From positions 64,128 to 128,127 of the forward strand of contig JAUNHE010000008.1 of the NCBI GenBank assembly GCA_030524105.1: a DNA stretch of 64,000 nt, in the 5' to 3' direction. The position numbers and the translations under genes were made by a program. Each line of letters opens with the position of its first letter. The stretch's first letter is position 1. The DNA is from Rothia sp. (in: high G+C Gram-positive bacteria) (GTDB taxonomy: Bacteria; Actinomycetota; Actinomycetes; Actinomycetales; Micrococcaceae). The notes under the pieces were generated by a model. That model was given only the letters and a program-made list of their open reading frames with translations, was not told the DNA's origin and did no database searches. Below, piece after piece: positions 7,330-27,173 of this stretch.

Positions 7330-8433
7330 GTGGCTTTAACTATTGGAATTGTGGGTCTGCCCAATGTTGGTAAATCGACCCTTTTTAATGCTTTGACTAA
7401 GAATACTGTGCTGGCGGCTAATTATCCTTTTGCAACTATTGAACCCAATATTGGTGTGGTTAATTTGCCTGATGCTCGTTTGGACCGGCTGGCGGAGATC
7501 TTTTCTTCGGAGCGTATTGTGCCGGCGACGGTGTCTTTTGTGGATATTGCCGGTATTGTTCGGGGTGCTTCTGAGGGGGAGGGGCTGGGGAACCAGTTTT
7601 TGGCTAATATCCGTGAAGCCCAGGCTATTGCCCAGGTGGTGCGGGCTTTTGCCGATTCAGATGTGGTGCATGTGGACGGTAAGGTGGATCCGGCTTCCGA
7701 TATGGAGACTATTAATACGGAGCTGATTTTAGCGGATTTGCAGACTTTGGAGAAGGCTACTGTCCGCCTGGAGAAGGCTGTTAAGATTAAGAAGGCTGAT
7801 GCTGGGCAGTTGGCGGAGTATCGTAAGGCTCAGGCTATTTTGGAGCAGGGTTCTACTCTTTTTTCTCAGGTTGAGGAGGCCGATCTTGATCTTTCGCTTT
7901 TACGCGATCTTAATCTTTTGACGGCTAAACCTTTTATTTATGTTTTTAATGCTGATGAGCAGGTTTTGGGTTCGCCGCAGCGTCAGCAGCAGCTGCGGGA
8001 GCTGGTTGCGCCGGCCCAGGCTGTTTTTTTGGATGCCAAGCTTGAGGCGGACATGGTGGAGCTGGATGAGCAGGAGGCCCGGGAGATGCTGGAGCTGGCC
8101 GGGCAGGAGGAGTCTGGCTTGGATCAGCTGGCCCGGGTGGGCTTTTCCACTTTGGGTTTGCAAACCTATTTGACGGCCGGGCCTAAGGAGGCTCGGGCTT
8201 GGACTGTAAGTAAGGGTGCTACGGCACCGCAGGCTGCCGGGGTTATTCACAGTGATTTTGAGCGGGGTTTTATTAAGGCTGAAGTTGTTTCTTTTGAGGA
8301 TTTGGACGCTGCCGGTTCTCTGAGTGAGGCTAAGGCTCGCGGCAAGGTCCGCCTTGAAGGCAAGGACTACCTGATGGCTGATGGTGACGTAGTGGAGTTC
8401 CGGAGCGGGCTTGCCTCTGGGGGGAAGAGGTGA
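7330..8433 (+). CDS. ychF: Ribosome-binding ATPase YchF (Obg-family GTPase)
   Basis: P-loop IGIVGLPNVGKSTLFNALT, a TGS-like C-terminus and ~363 aa length. Confidence 0.9.
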   Translation: MALTIGIVGLPNVGKSTLFNALTKNTVLAANYPFATIEPNIGVVNLPDARLDRLAEIFSSERIVPATVSFVDIAGIVRGASEGEGLGNQFLANIREAQAIAQVVRAFADSDVVHVDGKVDPASDMETINTELILADLQTLEKATVRLEKAVKIKKADAGQLAEYRKAQAILEQGSTLFSQVEEADLDLSLLRDLNLLTAKPFIYVFNADEQVLGSPQRQQQLRELVAPAQAVFLDAKLEADMVELDEQEAREMLELAGQEESGLDQLARVGFSTLGLQTYLTAGPKEARAWTVSKGATAPQAAGVIHSDFERGFIKAEVVSFEDLDAAGSLSEAKARGKVRLEGKDYLMADGDVVEFRSGLASGGKR

Positions 8434-8607
8434 CTGCTAGGGGAGAACTATGGCCGAACTTCCTTTGAATCTTGACCAGGCAGCCGAGTGGGATGGCTGG
8501 TGGTGGCATCCGGGGTATTCGCTTTTAACGGCGTGCCGGGTGTCCGCCAGTGAAGCAGTTGTGGGGTTGTGAGGAGGGTAAACTTCAGAAATTCTAATTT
8601 CATGCAA

Positions 8608-8643
8608 AGAAGAGCTGCCCGATCGCTGGGCAGCTCTTCTTTT
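8608..8643 (+). terminator. Intrinsic terminator: 13-bp perfect stem, 7-nt loop, T-run
   Basis: agaagagctgccc-gatcgct-gggcagctcttct followed by ttt. It lies downstream of ychF at the left edge of the low-GC island. Confidence 0.6.
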
Positions 8644-8679
8644 AGCAGATATAGGTAAGCAGGCTTTACTTATATTTTT

Positions 8680-9234
8680 CTACCAGTTGCAAGCACTTGC
8701 GGGGCTTCTCTTAATAAGAGCCGCGGATATTCCACTACGCCAGCCAGGCCAGCTCCTACGGTAGCTCTCTAGGTCAATGTTGATTGTTCCGGGAAGACCT
8801 GCCACATGACATTCCCATTGCTGCGCCATGGTAGCAGAGCTCATTGAGCGAGGATGATGTTCACGTAAGTCTTTTAATCCTTCAGTCATCACATATGAAG
8901 GGTTAAAGGGTTGGTACCACCTTGCTAGCGCGGTAACCTGGAGTCTTACTTCCCAGCCACCTTTAGCCCAGCGCTCCCATACAACAGTATGAATCATTCC
9001 ACGCCTATAGACGGGGTCAGCAACTATAGGATATTGAATATCTGAAGCATCTTTATGAGAGACAACCTGGGTGATTACATTACCTTCAACTTGATAATGA
9101 GTAGGAACTTCATTGCCGTTCGCGTCCAGTGCCCAAGGCGGCGTGAAGCCGCCGATCAGTCCTCCGTCTGCGTCTTCAATTAAAACGCCTCCATGCGTTT
9201 CAAAGATGCGTGCACCTTCAGGAAGACGGAGCAA
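8680..9234 (-). pseudogene. Remnant of an uncharacterised (possibly secreted hydrolase-like) protein gene; low GC
   Basis: The 184-codon frame begins only with TTG, 3 codons after an in-frame stop. There is no signal peptide or credible N-terminus. GC is visibly lower than in flanking core genes. It contains a QQWECHVAGLPG Cys-His pair. Confidence 0.4.
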
Positions 9235-9282
9235 ACTTGGTGTTTACTGGTAGTTATGAGCATACATCGAGATAAGAAATTT

Positions 9283-9450
9283 ATGTTGGTTGTCACTGGA
9301 ATCGCTGTTCTTCTCGTGCTACTCTTTGCAGTATTCGTGTCCGGTGTTCTCGCCTTTTGGCTGGATCCAGAACCCGAACATGACACAAGAATCAGAACAG
9401 AATCTCAGGCAAGCGAAGTCGTGAACACCTCGTTTGGCATAGGCAACTAA
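9283..9450 (+). CDS. Putative 55-aa single-TM small protein (speculative)
   Basis: ATG at 9283 gives MLVVTGIAVLLVLLFAVFVSGVLAFWLDPEPEHDTRIRTESQASEVVNTSFGIGN: one hydrophobic helix plus a charged tail. Low GC and weak RBS. Confidence 0.25.
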   Translation: MLVVTGIAVLLVLLFAVFVSGVLAFWLDPEPEHDTRIRTESQASEVVNTSFGIGN

Positions 9451-9693
9451 CCTCTCCTTAAAGGGTTACCATCCGCCGTACACGCTTCTGGATTCTTGTC
9501 GCAGATGCATTTGTAGACAGTCTTTACCTCACTTGCTGCCCTCACCTAACGCTCTTCTTTCTTCCGGGAGTACTGCTTCTTCTTTTTCCTGGTAGGGAAA
9601 GTTCTGCCCGCATCCCGTCTCTTCCTTATCTTCTCTCTGAAGACTTATCTTCTGATTTTAAGTCTGCTTAATCGGACTTTGCTAACGCTCAGA

Positions 9694-9720
9694 CTCTCTA
9701 TCTCTCTCTCGCTTCTCTCC
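9694..9720. repeat. Imperfect (CT)n dinucleotide tract inside a ~450-bp pyrimidine-rich (+ strand) non-coding stretch
   Basis: ctctctatctctctctcgcttctctcc. The surrounding 9450-9900 has no ORF with coding character and strong CT/AG strand asymmetry. Confidence 0.5.
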
Positions 9721-9946
9721 ATGTGCTTTCCAACTCTCAACTGAGGCTCAGCCTGGTCGGTCAGTCGATTGGCACTGCGTACACAAGGTGCTGTGTCCAG
9801 TGCGTAGATGGCGAGAGGCTCTAATCTCTCACGCGGACGGCATATGCCTCGTAATCTGGTGATGCTGGGTATGCGTAGGTCTGCGACACGCCGGTAAGAC
9901 ATATTATGCACCGGATCACTTCCTTGAGACCAGACTCCTAATAGCA

Positions 9947-10420
9947 GTGGGTGCGGCCGAGGTACTGCATCGCGGCCTGCGCATCGATGAGAAGCCGTTT
10001 CCTGTGGAGAAGTTCACAGAGATGCGCGAAGATGCGCTTAAGCAGGTGCCCGAAGAGTACCGCGCCAAGTTCAAGGGGATGCTCAGAAACGAGCCAACGC
10101 TCCGGAGCCGGCTTTGTGCCCTGGCTAAGCGAGTCGATTCGCAAGAGATTACGGATCTTCTGCCAGATATCGATTATTGGGCGAAGCGGACGACACAAGC
10201 CCGCAATAACCTGGTACACGAGGGTAGGACACCTGAGCAATCCGTGGACGAGCTGCTAGCCATCGTCGAGACCACAACCGCGGTTCTGATACTCAATATC
10301 TTAAAGGAGCTTGGGCTGCCGGCAGGGCGGCAGCGCCGGATTGTGCTATGTATCCCGCAGTTCAGGCAAGCTTCTGAGAGCGCGAATAAGTGGCTACGGC
10401 CTCCAGAAGCCAAGTCCTGA
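9947..10420 (+). CDS. HEPN-motif protein (157 aa, GTG start), probably a minimal HEPN or the surviving C-terminal HEPN of a degraded Abi-like gene
   Basis: R-N-N-L-V-H (R86..H91, nt 10202-10219) fits the Rx4-6H / RNxxxH HEPN nuclease motif. The surrounding context is helical. The frame opens right after a stop with only a GTG start; the first ATG lies further in. Confidence 0.45.
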   Translation: MGAAEVLHRGLRIDEKPFPVEKFTEMREDALKQVPEEYRAKFKGMLRNEPTLRSRLCALAKRVDSQEITDLLPDIDYWAKRTTQARNNLVHEGRTPEQSVDELLAIVETTTAVLILNILKELGLPAGRQRRIVLCIPQFRQASESANKWLRPPEAKS

Positions 10421-10594
10421 ACGGTGCAGACCTTGTGCTTTCCCCAAATGATCCCCGAGCCTTAGCCCAAGGCCCCCGGGCTCTGCCCTGCCTTCAGCCG
10501 GTATGTATGGGGCCTATTCTTGCGGCTAGCCTGTAATATAACTACTAGTCAAAGCGGTATAGGCCCCTTGTAGGGGTTAGTTTGGGGGTAGGAC

Positions 10595-11932
10595 ATGCTC
10601 AAAGATTTGGAACAGATTCAGCACGAGGTTCTTGACCCCCAGTCCCGCCAACTCCTTGCCGAAGTCATGAAATGCTACCAGGCTGGCGCCTACCGGGCAG
10701 CCCTAGTCTGCCTCTGGATTGCGGTAGTAGCCGATCTTACGGGAAAAATCCGTTACCTAGCCGAATCCGGTGACGGGCAAGCTAAAAGCATGATCGACCA
10801 GCTAGACCAAGCACTGGCAGACGGGGCCGTCAAAAAAGTCCAAGACTACGAACGGACAATCCTCGAAAAGGCAGAACAAACCCTAGAAATTCTTCTACCC
10901 CGGGAACGAAAAGAACTCGAACGCCTCAAAGAAGACCGCAACCTGTGTGCCCACCCCGGCTACCTAGACCAAGGCGAACTTTTTATACCCGACGCCGAGG
11001 CCGTCCGAGCCCACATTGTAGCTGTAAGCCGGGCCGTTTTCTCCCAGCGACCCCTAGCAGGTAAGCAGCTTATAAACCTGCTAGAAAAAGAAGTCAAAGG
11101 CCGGTCCTGGCCAGCCGGAGGAGACTACTTTCTGGACAGATTCTTCTGCACAGCCCGCAGCAGCGTCAAAAAAAATATGCTCAAAGTGCTGGTGAAACAC
11201 AGCATACGGCCAGCAGAAGACTGCAACACCCTTGCCCAACGCTCACGCGAAGCCACCCTAGCCGTAGCCCAACAAAACCCGCCCCTCTTTGAGGAAGTTA
11301 TCAGCTCCGTCCTGCACCACTGGGAAGCCAGCGGAGCTCTAGGAGAGGCAGAACTACTGCGTGCCGCCGGCGCCTACGGGGCCCAAACACTCTTCTGGCA
11401 GGTGCTACCCGCCACCGGAAAATCCAGGCTCAAGACACTCCTAGCCCGCTGCGACACAGCAGAACTACTGGACCAGCACTTCTTTGTCTGCGGTGAACCC
11501 AAAGACAAAGAACTTGCCCAGATCTTCACAGACATCGTAGCCAGCCTTACTGACCAAGAGCTTGCTAAAGCCATCGAGCAGTCCAAGAATCGCCGCCCCT
11601 TTGTACAGCAAACAATCAGCCTTGTTGAGTCTTCACCATCCTTCCGTGCAGCAGAAGCAAACCTGCGCCTGGTTGAGCTATGCAGCGAAAACCTCACCGC
11701 CAACCATATAAAACTCTTACGTAAAGCCATCCAGGCCAACAAATACGACCAGGTCAGGCAGGCCATGCATACCGAAGCAATCCTCGTAAACATCTACTCT
11801 GCCAGCTCACCCGACCAGGCAGCGCACCAGCAATGGCAGCAGCTAGCCGACTGGCTCTACCAGCAAAGCAACAACCAAGAAGATAGCCTCCACCCCTACC
11901 AAGGCCTACGTACCCTGATCAGGGCAGACTAG
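10595..11932 (+). CDS. HEPN-domain protein (DUF4145/Swt1-like N-terminal HEPN) fused to a ~300-aa all-alpha domain of unknown function
   Basis: The N-terminus QSRQLLAEVMKCYQAGAYRAALVCLWIAVVADL (typical HEPN helix 1), then EDRNLCAHPG with R115-x4-H120 (nt 10937-10954). The Leu/Ala-rich helical C-terminal part matched nothing I recognise. An RBS-like GGGGGTAGGA precedes the ATG. Confidence 0.55.
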   Translation: MLKDLEQIQHEVLDPQSRQLLAEVMKCYQAGAYRAALVCLWIAVVADLTGKIRYLAESGDGQAKSMIDQLDQALADGAVKKVQDYERTILEKAEQTLEILLPRERKELERLKEDRNLCAHPGYLDQGELFIPDAEAVRAHIVAVSRAVFSQRPLAGKQLINLLEKEVKGRSWPAGGDYFLDRFFCTARSSVKKNMLKVLVKHSIRPAEDCNTLAQRSREATLAVAQQNPPLFEEVISSVLHHWEASGALGEAELLRAAGAYGAQTLFWQVLPATGKSRLKTLLARCDTAELLDQHFFVCGEPKDKELAQIFTDIVASLTDQELAKAIEQSKNRRPFVQQTISLVESSPSFRAAEANLRLVELCSENLTANHIKLLRKAIQANKYDQVRQAMHTEAILVNIYSASSPDQAAHQQWQQLADWLYQQSNNQEDSLHPYQGLRTLIRAD

Positions 11933-11986
11933 CAGCCCAAAAAACTGTGGCCAGCAGCCAGCCGCAGGACAGCAGCTACAAGAGGC

Positions 11987-12328
11987 CTAGTATTCGCAAT
12001 TTTCCTGGAAGCGACGGCAGAGGGCCACCAGCACCCAGGCGCTGCCCATACTGGCAGCAAAAACCTTAACAAAACACTGCGCAGTATGGCGGTGACGGCT
12101 AGCATCGGTCAGCAAAGGACGCTCCGAACCGTACTCAGAACTAAGAATCAGCAGCGTATCGGTCACCGGCTTAGGAAAAAAAATAGGCTTGCCCAACTCA
12201 GGCTGCTGGTTAACATCAAGATCCTGAACCGTAACCTGCCCCGGCACAGAGTCCGCAGCCTGGGCAGGTGTGCCAGCCCAAGCACCTAGCGCAAAAACAA
12301 TAGAAGCCAACGCAATCCTTGCGTGCAT
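11987..12328 (-). CDS. Small secreted hypothetical protein (signal peptide, ~86-aa mature)
   Basis: MHARIALASIVFALGAWAGTPAQA|ADS is a Sec signal with AQA cleavage. The gene is followed upstream by a 330-bp AT-rich spacer. Confidence 0.4.
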   Translation of the reverse strand: MHARIALASIVFALGAWAGTPAQAADSVPGQVTVQDLDVNQQPELGKPIFFPKPVTDTLLILSSEYGSERPLLTDASRHRHTAQCFVKVFAASMGSAWVLVALCRRFQENCEY

Positions 12329-12627
12329 ATTCCCCCCAAATATGTGGCCGTGCTAGAACTAGGTATTTAAATATATTGATTTTTAAAGTCACTTTGGCCA
12401 GCAAATTTGCCGTCCAGGCCGGCAAGAAGAAGGGGAGCCGGGGCAGAAAAAGGGGCATGCAAGGTTAACTGCAGATAAAATCCTTTGTGACTTGGGTAAA
12501 TAAAAGCAAAAGTTGCTTGTGGGCCACTAGGGGGCTTGCTGTACAGAAAATTAGTTTCTTCGTTGAGTAAACGTCATAAAGTAAACAAATCAACAAATCT
12601 ATTAGAAATGTTGGCCGCACCCCTTGG

Positions 12628-12652
12628 CTGCCCAGCCTCACTGGGCAGCCTT
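12628..12652. terminator. GC-rich hairpin (10-bp perfect stem) just past the uvrA-paralog stop; no clear U-tract
   Basis: ggctgcccag-cctca-ctgggcagcc. It shares the core GCTGCCC...GGGCAGC with the hairpin at 8608-8640 on the other flank of the island. Confidence 0.4.
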
Positions 12653-12667
12653 ATCCTGCGCCAGCTC

Positions 12668-15037
12668 CTAGGCCAGGTAATCAGCAAGATACTGGGCGGT
12701 TAGCCCCCGGCCAGAAGCCACTAGCTGGGCGGGGCTGCCGGTAAAGACCACCTGGCCACCCTCTGCGCCGGCTCCTGGACCCAAATCAATAATATGATCC
12801 GCGTGGGCCATAACAGCCAGATGGTGCTCAATAACCACCACCGTTTTGCCAGAATCAACCAGCCTATCTAAAAGTTCCAGAAGCTGGGCAACATCTGCCA
12901 GGTGCAGGCCAACAGTAGGCTCATCCAAAATATAGAGCCCGCCCTGATCAGCCATCTGGCTGGCCAGCTTAAGCCGCTGACGTTCCCCACCGGAGAGACT
13001 GGATAGCTGCTGACCCAAAGTCAGGTAGGACAAACCAACATCAATCAGCCTTTTGAGAATCTTGACCGCCGCCGGTACCGAGCTATCTGCCCTAGCTAAA
13101 AAGTCAGCTGCCTGCTCAACGGACAAATTCAGTAGGTCAACAATGTTTAATCCCCCCAGGGTGTAGGTCAGTACCTGATCATTAAAACGCCTGCCCTCAC
13201 AGGTATGGCAGGGCAGGGAAACCTTGGCCAGCACCCCCAGCTCTGCCTCAAGCGTGCCGCTGCCCTTACAGGTAGGGCAGGCACCGGCTGAATTAGAGGA
13301 AAAAAGAGCTGGCTTAACCCCGTTGGCCTTGGCAAAAGCCTTACGAATACTCTCCAGCATGCCGGTATAGGTGGCCGGGTTAGAGCGGCGAGATCCCCGG
13401 ATAGGTTTTTGGTCAATACTAATAATGTCTTCTCCATCGGCAGTCTTGCCCACCAAATGCTGGTGAATCAGAGAAGACTTACCCGAACCAGCCACCCCGG
13501 TTACCACCGTAAGCTGGCCCAGGGGAATATCAACATCAATATTTTTAAGGTTATTGTTCTGAGCCCCGCGAATAGGGTGCTGGCCCCGAGCCGGACGAAT
13601 AGTCTCCTTCAAGGCAGCTCGGTAATTGAGGTGCTGCGCCGTCAGAGTCTGGGACTGCTTCAACTGGCTGTAGCTGCCCTCAAAAGTAATTTCACCACCC
13701 AGGCTACCGGCGCCCGGCCCAAGGTCAACAATATGATCGGCAATAGCAATCGTTTCGGGTTTATGCTCTACCACCAGGACGGTGTTGCCCTTATCCCGCA
13801 AAGAAAGCAGCAGCTCATTAATGTTTTTCAGATCGTGCGGATGCAGGCCGATGCTGGGTTCATCAAAAATATAGGTGACGTCAGTAAGGGCAGAACCCAG
13901 GTGACGAATCATCTTAGCCCGCTGGGCCTCCCCACCAGAAAGAGTTGCGGCAGGACGATCCAAACTAATATAGCCCAAACCGATAGTGATAAAAGCCTGC
14001 AAAACCTGCTTTAAGCTCTCGATCAGAGGGGCAACCTCGGGAATCTGCAGCTCCTCAAACCAGCTGGCCAAATCACTAACGGGCATAGCGGTGAGTTCGG
14101 CAATATTTTTTCCCTTAATAGTAGAGGCTAAAGCTACCGTATTAAGCCTGCTACCTTTGCAATCGGGACACTGAACAAAAGTAATAGCCCGCTCCACAAA
14201 AGCCCGCACATGCGGCTGCATGGATTCTTTGTCTTTAGCTAGCAGAGACTTCTCAATCCGGGGAACCAAACCCTCATAGGTCATATTAATACCGGCAATT
14301 TTAAGGCGGGTAGGTTCTTTATAAAGAAAATCTTGGAGCTCATCAGCACTAAAAGACTTAATAGGTTGGTTGGCCGGAAAGAGGCCAGACTCCCGGTACA
14401 AACGGGCATTCCAGCCGCCCTGGTTATAACCAGGAATACTAAAAAGATCGTCCTCAAGAGTTAGGTTTTCATCGTAGAGCTCAGAAAGCTCAATATGGTT
14501 GATCCGGCCTAAACCTTCGCAGGCAGGACACATGCCACCCTGCCTGTTAAAGGTAACGGTCTCTGCGCTGCTGCCCTTTTTATGAACGGTACGTGAACCC
14601 TGGGCGCTCACACTGGCAACATTAAAAGAATAGGCATCGGGACCGCCAGCCCTGGGCTCGGCCACCCGGGAGAAAAGAATGCGTAAGAGGGCAGTGACAT
14701 CGGTGGCAGTGCCAATAGTAGAGCGAGGATTGCCGCCCAAACGTTCTTGATCAACCACAATAGCGGTAGTCAGCCCCTCTAAAAGGTCTACTGCAGGGCG
14801 GGGGAGATTGGGCATAAACCCCTGGAGAAAGGCAGGGTAGGTTTCGTTAATCAGCCGCTGGGATTCGGCCGCAATGGTAGCAAAAACCAAGGATGACTTA
14901 CCCGAGCCAGAAACCCCGGTAAAGACGGTCAGCCGCCGCTTGGGCAGGGTAAGGCTAACATTCTTTAAGTTATTCTGCTGGGCCCCTTGAATACTAATGT
15001 TTTTGTGGCCATCGGCCGGGTGAGCTGGACTGGACAT
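12668..15037 (-). CDS. UvrA paralog (short-class excinuclease ABC subunit A-like ABC ATPase, 789 aa)
   Basis: Two ABC ATPase modules ([25 protein letters not shown] signatures) and Zn-finger Cys pairs (CPAC...CPDC, CPTC...CHTC). It is ~150-200 aa shorter than canonical UvrA, consistent with loss of the UvrB-interaction region. Confidence 0.8.
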
Positions 15038-23967: not shown

Positions 23968-24477
23968 TTATGCAAGGCACTTTTTTGCAACATCTTTGAA
24001 GCCTAGAACGCCACCAATAAATTTGGCTGCTTCAGCACCAATTTCTTTGATAGCCTTGCCACTCTTGATAGCGTTCCAGATTTCCTTGACGCTGCCCCAG
24101 ATTTCCTTGGCCTTACGCAGCCAGCCGAGGATCTTGATCAGCGGGTGCTTAAACTCTTTGACCAGGCCGATGAGGGCAATACCGCAACCGATAAAATCGA
24201 AAGATGCGTTAACGCCGCGGGGAGCTGAAGTAATCGTGGTTGTATTACCCAGATACTTTGCGATTTCAGCCTGATAGTTGGGGTAGGATTTAGGATCAGC
24301 ATTTTTTAGGCGTGCCGGAACTGAATCAAGTTTTTTGATAATGAGGCTGTACTGCTGCTCAGCAGACATTTTGGACTGAGGTACCTGCAGTGCAGTTGCC
24401 GGTGTTGCAGTAAGGGCAGTAAATGCCAGTAGCGATGCTGATGCACCTGCACAGGTTAAAACGGAACGGCGATCCAT
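23968..24477 (-). CDS. Tat-signal secreted protein with cationic, Trp/Lys-rich amphipathic C-terminal region (bacteriocin-like); low GC
   Basis: MDRRSVLTCAGASASLLAFTALTATPATA|LQ has a twin-arginine signal and AxA site. The C-terminal 65 aa GWLRKAKEIWGSVKEIWNAIKSGKAIKEIGAEAAKFIGGVLGFKDVAKKCLA resemble leaderless class II bacteriocins. GC is clearly below the neighbours. Confidence 0.45.
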   Translation of the reverse strand: MDRRSVLTCAGASASLLAFTALTATPATALQVPQSKMSAEQQYSLIIKKLDSVPARLKNADPKSYPNYQAEIAKYLGNTTTITSAPRGVNASFDFIGCGIALIGLVKEFKHPLIKILGWLRKAKEIWGSVKEIWNAIKSGKAIKEIGAEAAKFIGGVLGFKDVAKKCLA

Positions 24478-24894
24478 AGGACAGCAACCCCTTCTTCCTT
24501 GAAGACTTATTTTTCTTTTGAGGTCTTTGCGACCCGTTCAGTAATTTAGCAATTGGCAGAAAGCCCTACAAGGTAATTTTTTACCTAAATATTTAAGCTA
24601 CTAGCCAGCTTAGTATTAATATTTTTTTGTAATATTTTGTAGTGAATATTCTGTGCAGAAAAACGTCAAATACCGGGCTGGATGACGGTTTTCTTTGCTA
24701 AAAGAAAATAAATAAGTACTGTTCTGTAGGTATTTAGTAGGAAACCTCGGCTGATCTGCCGGATCATGCAATTGCCTACCGGAGCTAGGGGTCTTTTCTT
24801 GGTGGGACTAGGAAAGTGATTCCCGGCTTAGTTAACTGTCGTTAAATTTAAACTTTTTTTAAAATTCTTTTTAATTTAATGTGATTAATCAAGT

Positions 24895-24942
24895 AAAAAG
24901 AAATACCCGGATCGTGAAAACCTAGGTTCACACGATCCGGGT
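24895..24942 (-). terminator. Intrinsic terminator of icd
   Basis: A 12-bp inverted repeat acccggatcgtg...cacgatccgggt; on the minus strand it is followed by a T-rich run (atttcttttt). Confidence 0.6.
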
Positions 24943-24956
24943 CAAAAGACTTGCTT

Positions 24957-27173
24957 CTAGAGAGCGTCAATAATGCTATTAAAAGCTGCGCTAGGGCGCA
25001 TGACCTTGCTAGCTAGCTCAGGGTCTGGCCTGTAGTAACCGCCCAGATCGACGGCAGAACCCTGCACGGCAAGTAACTGCTCAAGAATAGTCTGCTCCTG
25101 CTGGTCCATAGCAGCAGCTACCGGGGCAAACTTCTGGGCCAGGGCTGGATCAAGCTCCTGGGTAGCTAGCTCTTGGGCCCAGTACTTTGCCAGGTAGAAA
25201 TGAGAACCCCTGTTATCCAGTTCGCCCACCTTACGGGAGGGAGACTTATTTTCATTGAGAAAGCGACCGGTTGCAGCATCCAAGGTATCCGCTAGCACCT
25301 GGGCAGCCCGATTCTGCTCAGTCTTGGCTAAGTGCTCAAAAGAGGCGGCTAAAGCCAAGAACTCACCCAGCGAATCCCAGCGTAGGTGGTTTTCTTGCAC
25401 AAGCTGCTGCACATGCTTAGGGGCAGAACCCCCGGCACCGGTCTCAAAAAGCCCTCCACCGTTAATAAGCGGAACAATCGAGAGCATCTTGGCGGAGGTC
25501 CCCAACTCCAGGATAGGAAAGAGGTCTGTTAGGTAGTCCCTCAGCACATTGCCGGTTACAGAAATCGTATCCTGGCCTTGCCTAATGCGATCAATAGAGA
25601 ACTGCGTTGCCTCTACCGGGCTCATAATACGAAGATCAAGGCCTTCAGTGTCGTGCTCAGGCAAATATTGTTCTACTTTGGCAATAAGGTTGCGGTCATG
25701 GGCTCGGTTTTTATCCAACCAAAAAACAGCTGGGCTCCCAGACTCACGAGCCCTGCTGACGGCCAGCTTGATCCAGTCCCGTACCGGAATATCCTTGGTT
25801 TGGCAGGCCCGCCAAATATCTCCGGCTTCAACCTTGTGTTCTAGCAGAACCTGGCCGCTAGAAGAAAGAACCTGCACCAGGCCGGGGCTGGCAATTTCAA
25901 AGGTCTTATCGTGGGAACCGTACTCTTCGGCTTTTTGCGCCATCAGTCCCACGTTAGGGACGCTACCCATACTGGTGGGGTCAAAGGCACCATTCTTTTT
26001 ACAGTCTTCAATAACAACCTGGTAGACCCCGGCATAGGAGGAGTCGGGTAGAACAGCCAGGGTATCCTCCTGGGCATCGTCCTTATTCCACATGTGCCCG
26101 GAGTTGCGAATCATAGCCGGCATGGAGGCATCAACAATAACGTCAGAAGGCACGTGCAGATTGCTAATGCCCTTGGCCGAGTTGACCATGGCCAAGGCCG
26201 GTCCTTGCTCAAAGCCTCGAGCGATTTCCTGCCGGATGGCTTCCTGGACTTCTGCCGGGAACTCCTCAATTCCTGCCAGGATAGCGCCCAGGCCATTGTT
26301 GCCGTTAAGGCCGGCTTCCTGTAGTTGCTGACCGTACTTTTCAAACAGTGCCGGAAAGAAGGCGCGAACAACATGCCCAAAAATAATGGGATCCGAGACC
26401 TTCATCATGGTTGCCTTTAAGTGCACTGAAAAGAGAAGGTTTTCTTCTTTGGCAGCGGCCACCTGCTCAGCTAAGAAACGATCCAGAGCCGCCACCTTCA
26501 GGTAGGTTGCGTCAACAATTTCTCCGGCAAGCACCGGCAGGGAATCCTTAAGGACAGTGACCTTGCCTTCAGTATCAAGATGCTGAATTGTTAGGACGTC
26601 ATCAGCCTCCATAATGATTGACTTCTCATTGCTGCAAAAGTCGTCCTGACCCATGGTGGCAACCCGCGTCTTGGAGTCGGGGCTCCAGCTGCCCATGCTA
26701 TGCGGGTTGTGCCGGGCATAATTTTTAACGGATTGGGGGGCGCGCCGGTCTGAGTTTCCCTCGCGCAGGACGGGATTAACCGCTGACCCCTTGACCCGGT
26801 CGTAGCGGGCACGTATTTCTGCCTGTTTGCTGTCGCTTACTTCTTCTGGGTAATCCGGGATAGCGTAGCCGGCCTCTTGGAGTTCGGCAATAGCGGCCAG
26901 TAGCTGCGGGACGGAGGCAGAAATATTGGGCAGTTTAATGATGTTTGCTTCTGGCTGCTTTGCCAGTTCACCTAGCTCAGTTAAGGCATCAGCCTCTTGC
27001 TGCTGATCGGTGAGGTAGTCGGGAAACTGGGCTAGGATACGCCCGGCCAGGGAAATATCCCGAGTTTCAAGCTCCACTCCAGCGCTGGCAGCAAAGGCCT
27101 GCACAATGGGTTTAAAGGAGTAGGTTGCCAGTAGAGGGGCTTCGTCGGTATGGGTATAGATAATCTTTGCCAT
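24957..27173 (-). CDS. icd: Monomeric NADP-dependent isocitrate dehydrogenase
   Basis: 738 aa. The [20 protein letters not shown]-terminus is typical of the monomeric IDH family found in Corynebacterium and Azotobacter. Confidence 0.9.

Follow-up and report, generated by a model that had tools for sequence, protein, structure and literature searches.

Locus overview

The locus described here occupies positions 8440-12660 of a window of 64,000 nucleotides (nt), the whole stretch of DNA analysed, from a Rothia-like member of the Micrococcaceae. The ychF gene of this host is 84% identical to that of Rothia sp. P4278, the best among the matches listed. This gene (7330-8433, + strand) encodes a ribosome-associated ATPase (Pfam YchF-GTPase_C, E = 2.4e-36, and MMR_HSR1) and forms the conserved left anchor of the locus, and a gene for a UvrA paralogue (12668-15037, - strand) lies at its right end. 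Two consecutive open reading frames (ORFs) on the + strand between these flanks, ORF1 (9947-10420, 157 amino acids, aa) and ORF2 (10595-11932, 445 aa), each carry an R-N-x3-H motif. A preliminary description, made from the letters of the sequence, had placed both ORFs and their motifs at exactly these nucleotides. It had proposed a 4.2-kb island of low GC (guanine plus cytosine) content carrying two HEPN proteins in an arrangement that matched nothing nameable, and it offered a degraded abortive-infection (Abi) locus or a novel two-component HEPN system as explanations. Both proteins do belong to HEPN families of anti-phage type, and profile searches did not place either of them elsewhere. However, each family is a described one, and it is very probable that the locus holds an intact gene of the known DARNA family beside the pseudogenised relic of an ApeA-like gene in a defence hotspot, rather than a novel pair.

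ORF2 and the PD-T7-3/DARNA family

PD-T7-3 is a single-gene system that was discovered by functional selection in Escherichia coli (Vassallo et al. 2022, PMC9519451) and has been renamed DARNA (Puteikiene et al. 2026 preprint, 10.64898/2026.02.22.705581). In that preprint, DARNA is described as an N-terminal HEPN RNase domain with an R117x4H122 motif joined to a C-terminal Pds5/HEAT-like domain. Its active form is a dodecamer that cuts the anticodon loops of tRNAs. The system is switched on by single-stranded DNA (ssDNA) and SSB, acts by abortive infection, and functions in E. coli as a single gene (10.64898/2026.02.22.705581).

Profile alignments indicate that ORF2 is a full-length, divergent actinobacterial member of this family. 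Its residues 4-398 align with positions 5-409 of the 432 positions in the PADLOC PD-T7-3 model (PDLC04108, E = 5.7e-33). The protein also matches PDB entry 9wxf (460 aa, 12 chains; phmmer E = 9.2e-13), which is one of the "Dandelion" structures (9wxf, 9wx2 and 9wwz). A profile built from 34 family members aligns with chain 9wxf_A at E = 3e-42, with profile positions 6-390 on chain residues 12-409, and thereby spans both domains. A search for literature joining "Dandelion" with HEPN and phage found nothing relevant. All seven residues named in the DARNA preprint (N33, R98, R117, H122, E347, F368 and D372) recur at position +5 in the chain of Dandelion, which is therefore DARNA itself or a very closely related protein. 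The local Pfam-A search with ORF2 gave no significant match, and the sole Pfam label for this protein is the precomputed entry PF27235 ("AF_1680"), which is marked as weak.

Structurally, ORF2 falls in the same length class as DARNA (445 aa compared to approximately 456 aa) and has the same layout, with an N-terminal HEPN RNase domain at about residues 1-155 and a C-terminal helical solenoid at about residues 160-445. In both proteins, the C-terminal domain is all-helical and HEAT-like and measures about 290 aa, and an AlphaFold2 model of ORF2 is all-helical with a predicted local distance difference test score (pLDDT) of 90. The Rx4H motif, RNLCAH (10937-10954), puts R115 (nt 10937) and H120 (nt 10952) at positions nearly equal to those of R117 and H122 in DARNA, and these two residues form invariant columns across the family alignment. 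The most conserved motif of the C-terminal domain, SxSFRxAE, is retained in ORF2 as SFRAAE at residues 349-354 (11639-11656), where F350 and E354 align with the ssDNA-contact residues F368 and D372 of DARNA. What had been described as a large unknown domain fused to the HEPN part of ORF2 is the counterpart of the ssDNA-sensing solenoid of DARNA.

Like DARNA, ORF2 stands alone as one gene, and the genes that flank its homologues differ between contexts and are unrelated. Its setting is distinct in that the host is an actinobacterium and the gene is chromosomal, at the 3' flank of ychF. Comparisons with contigs from strains of the same species as the window (L001-L004) gave ratios of nonsynonymous to synonymous substitution rates (dN/dS) of 0.11-0.18 for ORF2 and 0.11 for the UvrA paralogue. 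ORF2 is under purifying selection. The 174-nt spacer ahead of it (10421-10594, + strand) is conserved with L004 and carries a Shine-Dalgarno-like motif, GGGGGTAGGA, just before the ATG. A promoter and terminator scan gave no more matches than shuffled sequence, and a consensus promoter upstream of ORF2 was not found. Presumably, ORF2 has its own promoter in this spacer.

ORF1 and its ApeA-like relatives

ORF1 belongs with ApeA, a system reportedly described by Gao et al. in 2020. It matches the Pfam family HEPN_Apea (PF18739) almost from end to end (profile positions 6-134 of 136, E = 8.2e-21), and its motif, RNNLVH, occupies residues 86-91 (R86-x4-H91; 10202-10219). The PADLOC models matched are PDC-S58, which ORF1 covers only at positions 306-434 of 461, and Cas13-ApeA; no plain ApeA model is among the matches. 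In an exhaustive search, most relatives of ORF1 proved to be 437-521 aa in length, and the stretch that resembles ORF1 falls at about residues 330-490. P0067 (495 aa, 62% identical), the best of the full-length relatives, has an ApeA_NTD1 domain at residues 13-306 and a HEPN_Apea domain at residues 336-466, and it matches PDC-S58 from end to end. Searches of PDB sequences with ORF1 returned only spurious matches to protein A repeats.

The remainder of such a gene is present in the window in two separated pieces. With this full-length relative as the query, tblastn placed residues 325-486 at 9905-10390 and residues 1-21 at 8450-8512 (67% identity, E = 4.9e-5). A hidden Markov model (HMM) built from 43 full-length relatives gave the same picture, with positions 1-21 found at E = 2.5e-4 and positions 323-490 of 492 at E = 8.6e-73. 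The DNA in between (8513-9868) has no match to HMM positions 22-322 in any frame, with all E-values above 1. The 5' relic (MAELPLNLDQAAEWDGWWWHP, + strand) comprises the first 21 codons and starts 17 nt past the ychF stop codon. The 3' relic with the HEPN_Apea domain extends over 9869-10420 (+ strand), and ORF1 is its mechanically called portion.

Several features of the 3' relic bear on whether it could be translated. Its frame is open from 9863, directly after a TGA stop codon at 9860-9862, and there is no in-frame ATG, GTG or TTG from 9863 to the GTG at 9947, although the homology begins at 9869-9905. The homology of the relic tail therefore begins 14-26 codons ahead of the first possible start codon, and that GTG is not preceded by a Shine-Dalgarno motif. 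By these comparisons, ORF1 is the 3' third of a disrupted gene of the PADLOC candidate class PDC-S58, whose product of about 490 aa would have combined an ApeA_NTD1 with a HEPN_Apea domain, and the relic is presumably not expressed. The suggestion of a degraded Abi locus was right for this half of the locus.

Compared to ApeA and PDC-S58 proteins, the relic tail keeps a complete HEPN_Apea domain with its Rx4H motif, whereas the middle 300 or so codons, which correspond to ApeA_NTD1, are replaced and only the 21 N-terminal codons and the C-terminal third are left. Both the ligand pocket of ApeA and its assembly into a ring need the N-terminal domain (Juozapaitis et al. 2026 preprint, 10.64898/2026.01.26.701840). 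Because of this requirement, a HEPN-only tail cannot work as ApeA does, and the pocket and the ring-shaped oligomer are out of reach for the relic.

The two ORFs also differ in how they have changed between strains. In the comparison of the window with L002, the relic tail differs by 27.5 nonsynonymous changes and 4.5 synonymous ones (dN/dS 2.0), whereas ORF2 has 5 nonsynonymous and 14 synonymous differences (Fisher's exact p approximately 2e-5 to 6e-5 versus the relic). The dS of the relic tail equals that of neighbouring genes in the same comparison. The dN/dS of the relic tail does not exceed 1 to a significant degree (binomial p 0.08-0.17), so neutral drift explains the value. Nearly all of the differences between the relic tail and L002 and L003 cluster at 9981-10100 and 10300-10400, are mostly charge-changing, and include an in-frame insertion or deletion (indel) of 12 nt. 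The DNA at 9200-9899, beside these patches, shows zero differences from L002 and L003. This clustering could be the result of drift, of a gene-conversion tract, or of diversifying selection.

Short proteins of this type are also found elsewhere. Many of the closest ApeA-like relatives, from Streptomyces, Lentzea and metagenomes (P0054, P0057, P0058, P0060, P0061 and P0064), are likewise only 157-274 aa in length. HEPN-only or N-terminally shortened ApeA-like ORFs seem to be common, and some of them may be relics or may represent a genuine short form.

The replacement segment

In the place of approximately codons 22-320 of the ApeA-like gene, the segment at 8513-9868 supplies 1.36 kb of unrelated DNA. 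Strains L001-L003 carry this segment at 99.7-100% identity and L004 lacks it, and the only other match to it within the window is its own hairpin. This hairpin (8606-8642), which was found in an inverted-repeat search, has 15-nt arms that are 100% complementary and a 7-nt loop. It is probably a terminator that was imported with the gene fragment next to it. The fragment itself (8680-9234, - strand) had been called a gene remnant in the preliminary description, and it indeed represents the 3' end of an unrelated hypothetical gene, encoding the C-terminal 184 aa of a family whose members are 242-322 aa in length. Its homologues are 60-70% identical, belong to a family seen in Microbacterium, and all align from residues 61-139 to their ends. 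A match of the fragment to the Pfam family DUF2599 (E = 0.013) is under threshold.

The rest of the segment holds little that can be named. A hydrophobic ORF of 55 aa at 9283-9450 (+ strand), which was also noted earlier, is called by the gene caller (L001 547-714) and has no Pfam match or other significant family match; its status as a gene is doubtful. The right-hand part of the segment (9451-9868) is a non-coding tract without an Rfam match or a tRNA gene. It had been described as rich in pyrimidines, and the + strand of 9451-9870 is 62% pyrimidine.

Flanking genes and composition

An ORF of 113 aa for which no family match was found lies downstream of ORF2 (11987-12328, - strand). It is present as the preliminary description had it, although the secretion proposed for its product corresponds only to a signal-peptide-like N-terminus that is read from the translation. 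This ORF is 95-100% identical in L001-L004, with a dN/dS of 0.26-0.94. We considered it as a possible accessory of the DARNA homologue and rejected it, as it has no match (E up to 1e-4) in the other-genus DARNA loci searched (L012, L085-L095). The UvrA paralogue, which had been correctly named as the right flank, is a class II-like protein of 789 aa that scores 680 bits against the NCBIfam model TIGR00630, under the cutoff of 729.8, with its best-scoring stretch beginning at profile position 265.

The composition of the region rules out an island of low GC content as a description of the whole. Positions 8440-12660 have a GC content of 52.6%, compared to 53.3% for the window (standard deviation 3.45 points for 500-nt windows), and the values for ORF1 (56.5%) and ORF2 (54.9%) are core-like or higher. 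The earlier observation holds only for the replacement segment (48.8%, the 4th percentile of equal-size windows) and for the spacer at 12329-12667 (45.7%). The lowest GC content in the window is found elsewhere, at 24250-25000 (37-41% in 500-nt windows), between ORFs at 23968-24477 (- strand) and 24957-27173 (- strand). This dip is far more extreme than anything in the locus described here.

A scan of positions 8000-13000 with Rfam gave no match above threshold. The sub-threshold match to CyaR/RyeE at 12576-12656 (27.5 bits versus a gathering score of 47, E = 0.061), located in the AT-rich spacer before the UvrA paralogue, is probably due to chance. Neither an integrase, nor a tRNA gene, nor flanking direct or inverted repeats that would define an element were found in the window.

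A variable site downstream of ychF

Both ychF and tpx/azlCD are kept across Rothia species, and the 6-10 kb in between varies. Among the strains of the species, 8419-10331 is the one segment observed to differ. In L004 (GCA_041837335.1), 363 of the 367 residues of ychF match at 100% identity, and the identity of ORF2 is 98%. However, homology to the window stops at 8418 and resumes at 10332, and an unrelated 3-kb segment with a GC content of 59% lies in place of the DNA in between. Of the ApeA tail, no more than the final 28 codons are left in L004. The presence or absence of the locus between strains, which had been proposed as a check, is thus seen for 8419-10331, whereas ORF2 is kept.

The cassette found in L004 (L004:2425-5390) contains two genes in tandem on the minus strand, encoding proteins of 309 aa and of 169 aa, the latter of which is hydrophobic and probably located in the membrane. 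Neither has a Pfam or PADLOC match, and the two could be an undescribed two-gene defence candidate. The same cassette holds a 58-aa C-terminal relic of the type I restriction-enzyme R subunit HsdR (PF11867, 2.8e-11).

Other Rothia (L007 and L012) carry defence cargo of their own at this site. An uncultured Rothia metagenome-assembled genome (L007) has a gene for a 602-aa AAA_15/OLD-family ATPase directly past ychF (L007:11235-13043), for which the best PADLOC matches are NsnB, AriA, Old and GajA. Rothia sp. CCM 9419 (L012) has a DARNA allele in this position (L012:11223-12569; PADLOC PD-T7-3, E = 1.7e-36) that is only 37% identical to ORF2, compared to 83% for ychF, so that the slot is filled by very divergent alleles. 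The UvrA paralogue is conserved within the species but has no orthologue in the ychF-tpx interval of three other Rothia species (L005, L007 and L012), and therefore it too lies in a region that is variable at the level of the genus.

Defence hotspots anchored at conserved core genes are a general concept. The site described here resembles them in having conserved flanks around defence cargo that changes from strain to strain and from species to species and is interspersed with gene relics, and it differs in the lack of an integrase, tRNA gene or flanking repeats in this window. We have not met with a description of ychF as a hotspot anchor, although no dedicated literature search was made. We read the DNA past ychF as a shared integration and recombination hotspot for defence cargo in Rothia.

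More widely, the association of ychF with DARNA homologues depends on the direction in which it is viewed. Among 80 ychF loci of other species, one has a DARNA homologue and none has an ApeA-like gene. Viewed from the actinobacterial DARNA clade, the gene is located directly past ychF or one gene away in six of seven contexts, from Micrococcales and Propionibacteriales. Post-ychF copies on the same strand are found in Rothia sp. CCM 9419, Citricoccus muralis, Cutibacterium granulosum, Microbacterium maritypicum and the P0008 lineage, and the Cutibacterium homologue is 57% identical to ORF2, with ychF at 66%. An alignment of the DNA upstream of the DARNA genes from seven contexts revealed no shared motif besides the 3' end of ychF.

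The individual contexts differ in what accompanies the DARNA homologue. In the P0008 lineage (L093:5700-6000, L094 versus L095:2-49), one contig has intact ychF sequence up to the DARNA gene, and two others have the last 10 or so codons of ychF before it, behind a gene for a 419-aa integrase (rve)-family protein. This reflects either the landing of an insertion sequence in ychF or a move of the cassette together with the ychF terminus. Past the ychF-DARNA pair of Citricoccus muralis (L085:7932-12426) there is an IS110 transposase, a pair of genes with DUF4411 and HTH/Peptidase_M78 domains, and a HEPN_AbiV gene, and this flank is a larger defence island. A gene for a 516-aa protein with weak AAA_16/AAA_22 similarity and no PADLOC match lies between ychF and the DARNA gene in Microbacterium maritypicum (L092:4289-5839), the same position that is occupied by the ApeA-like gene in the window. 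Among more distant homologues, that of Vogesella indigofera (L098:5001-6377) is inserted singly between scpB and scpA, in a core operon neighbourhood, and that of Pyxidicoccus resides in a mobile element.

It is conceivable that the actinobacterial DARNA clade is specifically tied to the 3' end of ychF, beyond the sharing of a passive hotspot, but we consider this unlikely. Such a tie could arise if a mechanism of targeting or recombination makes use of the ychF terminus, or if a tRNA-cleaving defence nuclease is functionally coupled with YchF, as might happen through read-through co-transcription. A lesser possibility would be retention of the HEPN-only ApeA tail under diversifying selection.

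Alternative explanations

The proposal that the two HEPN ORFs form one two-component system, for instance with the short protein regulating or heterodimerising with the longer one, draws on their shared strand, their spacing of 174 nt, the Rx4H motif in both, their joint presence in three of the four strain contigs (L001-L003), and a short ORF that stays open with an allelic indel that is in frame. We find this extremely improbable. The short ORF represents the tail of a gene, now split, for a 490-aa protein; it lacks a start codon where its homology begins as well as a Shine-Dalgarno motif, and has a dN/dS of approximately 2, compared to 0.11 for its supposed partner. Strain L004 has ORF2 without the short ORF, and E. 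coli DARNA acts as a single gene. Moreover, in ten other contexts with a homologue of one gene, the other gene is absent in all. No ApeA neighbour was found for the DARNA homologues of Rothia sp. CCM 9419, Citricoccus muralis, Cutibacterium granulosum, Microbacterium maritypicum, the P0008 and P0024 lineages, Vogesella and Pyxidicoccus, and no DARNA neighbour was found for two ApeA-like relatives. The two genes are adjacent through a shared hotspot and not through joint function. As stated in the preliminary description, an MNT partner is also missing, with no nucleotidyltransferase family detected by Pfam, NCBIfam or PADLOC among the ORFs scanned in 8440-12660. In contrast to HEPN-MNT systems (HepT/MntA), both proteins of the window come from families of much larger, sensor-fused HEPN proteins.

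There is a slim chance that the ApeA-like tail is instead a functional stand-alone mini-HEPN protein under diversifying selection that is independent of ORF2, with a role such as that of toxin, decoy or anti-anti-defence factor. Its dN/dS of 2.0 and the clustering of its nonsynonymous changes would fit this idea, as would the in-frame 12-nt indel, the conservation of the catalytic R and H and of the core helices, and the existence in PADLOC of short ApeA-type HEPN models of 175-187 aa, named Cas13-ApeA. However, the tail is about 40-50 residues short even of these models, with which it aligns only from model positions 51-57. It also has no ribosome-binding site and is nearly absent from L004, its dN/dS does not significantly exceed 1, and ligand binding and oligomerisation in ApeA depend on the N-terminal domain (10.64898/2026.01.26.701840). 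Rather than a defence gene, ORF2 might be a housekeeping gene that acts in partnership with YchF, perhaps in the quality control of translation, but we give this a still smaller probability and regard it as highly unlikely. Homologues in several actinobacterial genera do share the strand of ychF and lie directly past it or with one gene in between, and the products of both genes would be related to translation. Such a role is difficult to reconcile with a homologue in only one of 80 ychF loci of other species, with a divergence that does not track that of ychF (37% versus 83% in the sister Rothia, and 57% versus 66% in Cutibacterium), or with the OLD-like ATPase, type I restriction remnant and ApeA-like gene that are held in the same slot. 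The more distant homologues reside in mobile elements or in other core operons, and the family is experimentally anti-phage (PMC9519451, 10.64898/2026.02.22.705581).

Certain observations weigh against reading the locus as an intact DARNA-family gene beside an ApeA-like pseudogene. Two diverged alleles of the relic both have their 157 codons open and are separated by an indel of 12 nt that preserves the frame, and the catalytic R and H are kept, such that some residual function of the relic is conceivable. Over the first 210 residues, the identity between ORF2 and Dandelion is only about 24%, and several DARNA residues that have been functionally tested are not kept in ORF2 (N33 corresponds to A30, R98 to T96 and E347 to Q329). 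The F6 region of DARNA is unaligned in ORF2, and the W406/N408 region lies beyond the confident alignment, where an ungapped extension yields Q and M in ORF2. Furthermore, Foldseek gave only weak solenoid matches in its PDB copy and did not return 9wxf, so that a direct match of one structure to the other is lacking. Because several tested DARNA residues are not conserved and W406/N408 are unaligned, the trigger, the RNA target and the oligomer size of ORF2 could differ from those of DARNA. The dodecamer-interface residues F6, N33 and E347, together with the RNA-contact residue R98, are traits of the E. coli protein and not of the family, and the family alignment does not conserve them either.

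Proposed history and function of the locus

An intact DARNA-family gene next to a pseudogenised ApeA-like gene would imply that two single-gene HEPN abortive-infection systems, independent of one another, formerly stood in tandem at the site past ychF. Judged by its homology to the DARNA of E. coli, the product of ORF2 would be expected to assemble into a higher-order oligomer and to remain silent until its C-terminal domains bind ssDNA exposed by phage SSB. It would then most likely cut host tRNAs in the anticodon loop, so that translation stops and the infection is aborted. The ApeA-like gene was very probably lost by a recombination event in which about 300 central codons of a gene for a protein of about 490 aa were swapped for 1.36 kb of foreign DNA of lower GC content. 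The leftover, a 21-codon head (8450-8512) and a HEPN-only tail (9869-10420), would be drifting as a pseudogene.

In other words, this locus is an ordinary defence hotspot whose members belong to single-gene families that have already been described, and the novelty claimed for it earlier was overstated. Current understanding of how DARNA and ApeA systems work is unchanged by the finding. The locus preserves a record of defence-gene loss, in which a hollowed-out ApeA-like gene leaves a tail that can be mistaken for a small HEPN protein, and it flags the 3' flank of ychF as a place to seek defence cargo in Actinobacteria. PD-T7-3/DARNA, which has so far been studied in E. coli, also has a well-conserved actinobacterial clade that includes Rothia-like and Cutibacterium commensals of humans and animals. 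This clade keeps the catalytic and ssDNA-contact motifs and differs in the oligomer-interface residues, and it therefore offers a comparison point for the generality of the DARNA mechanism.

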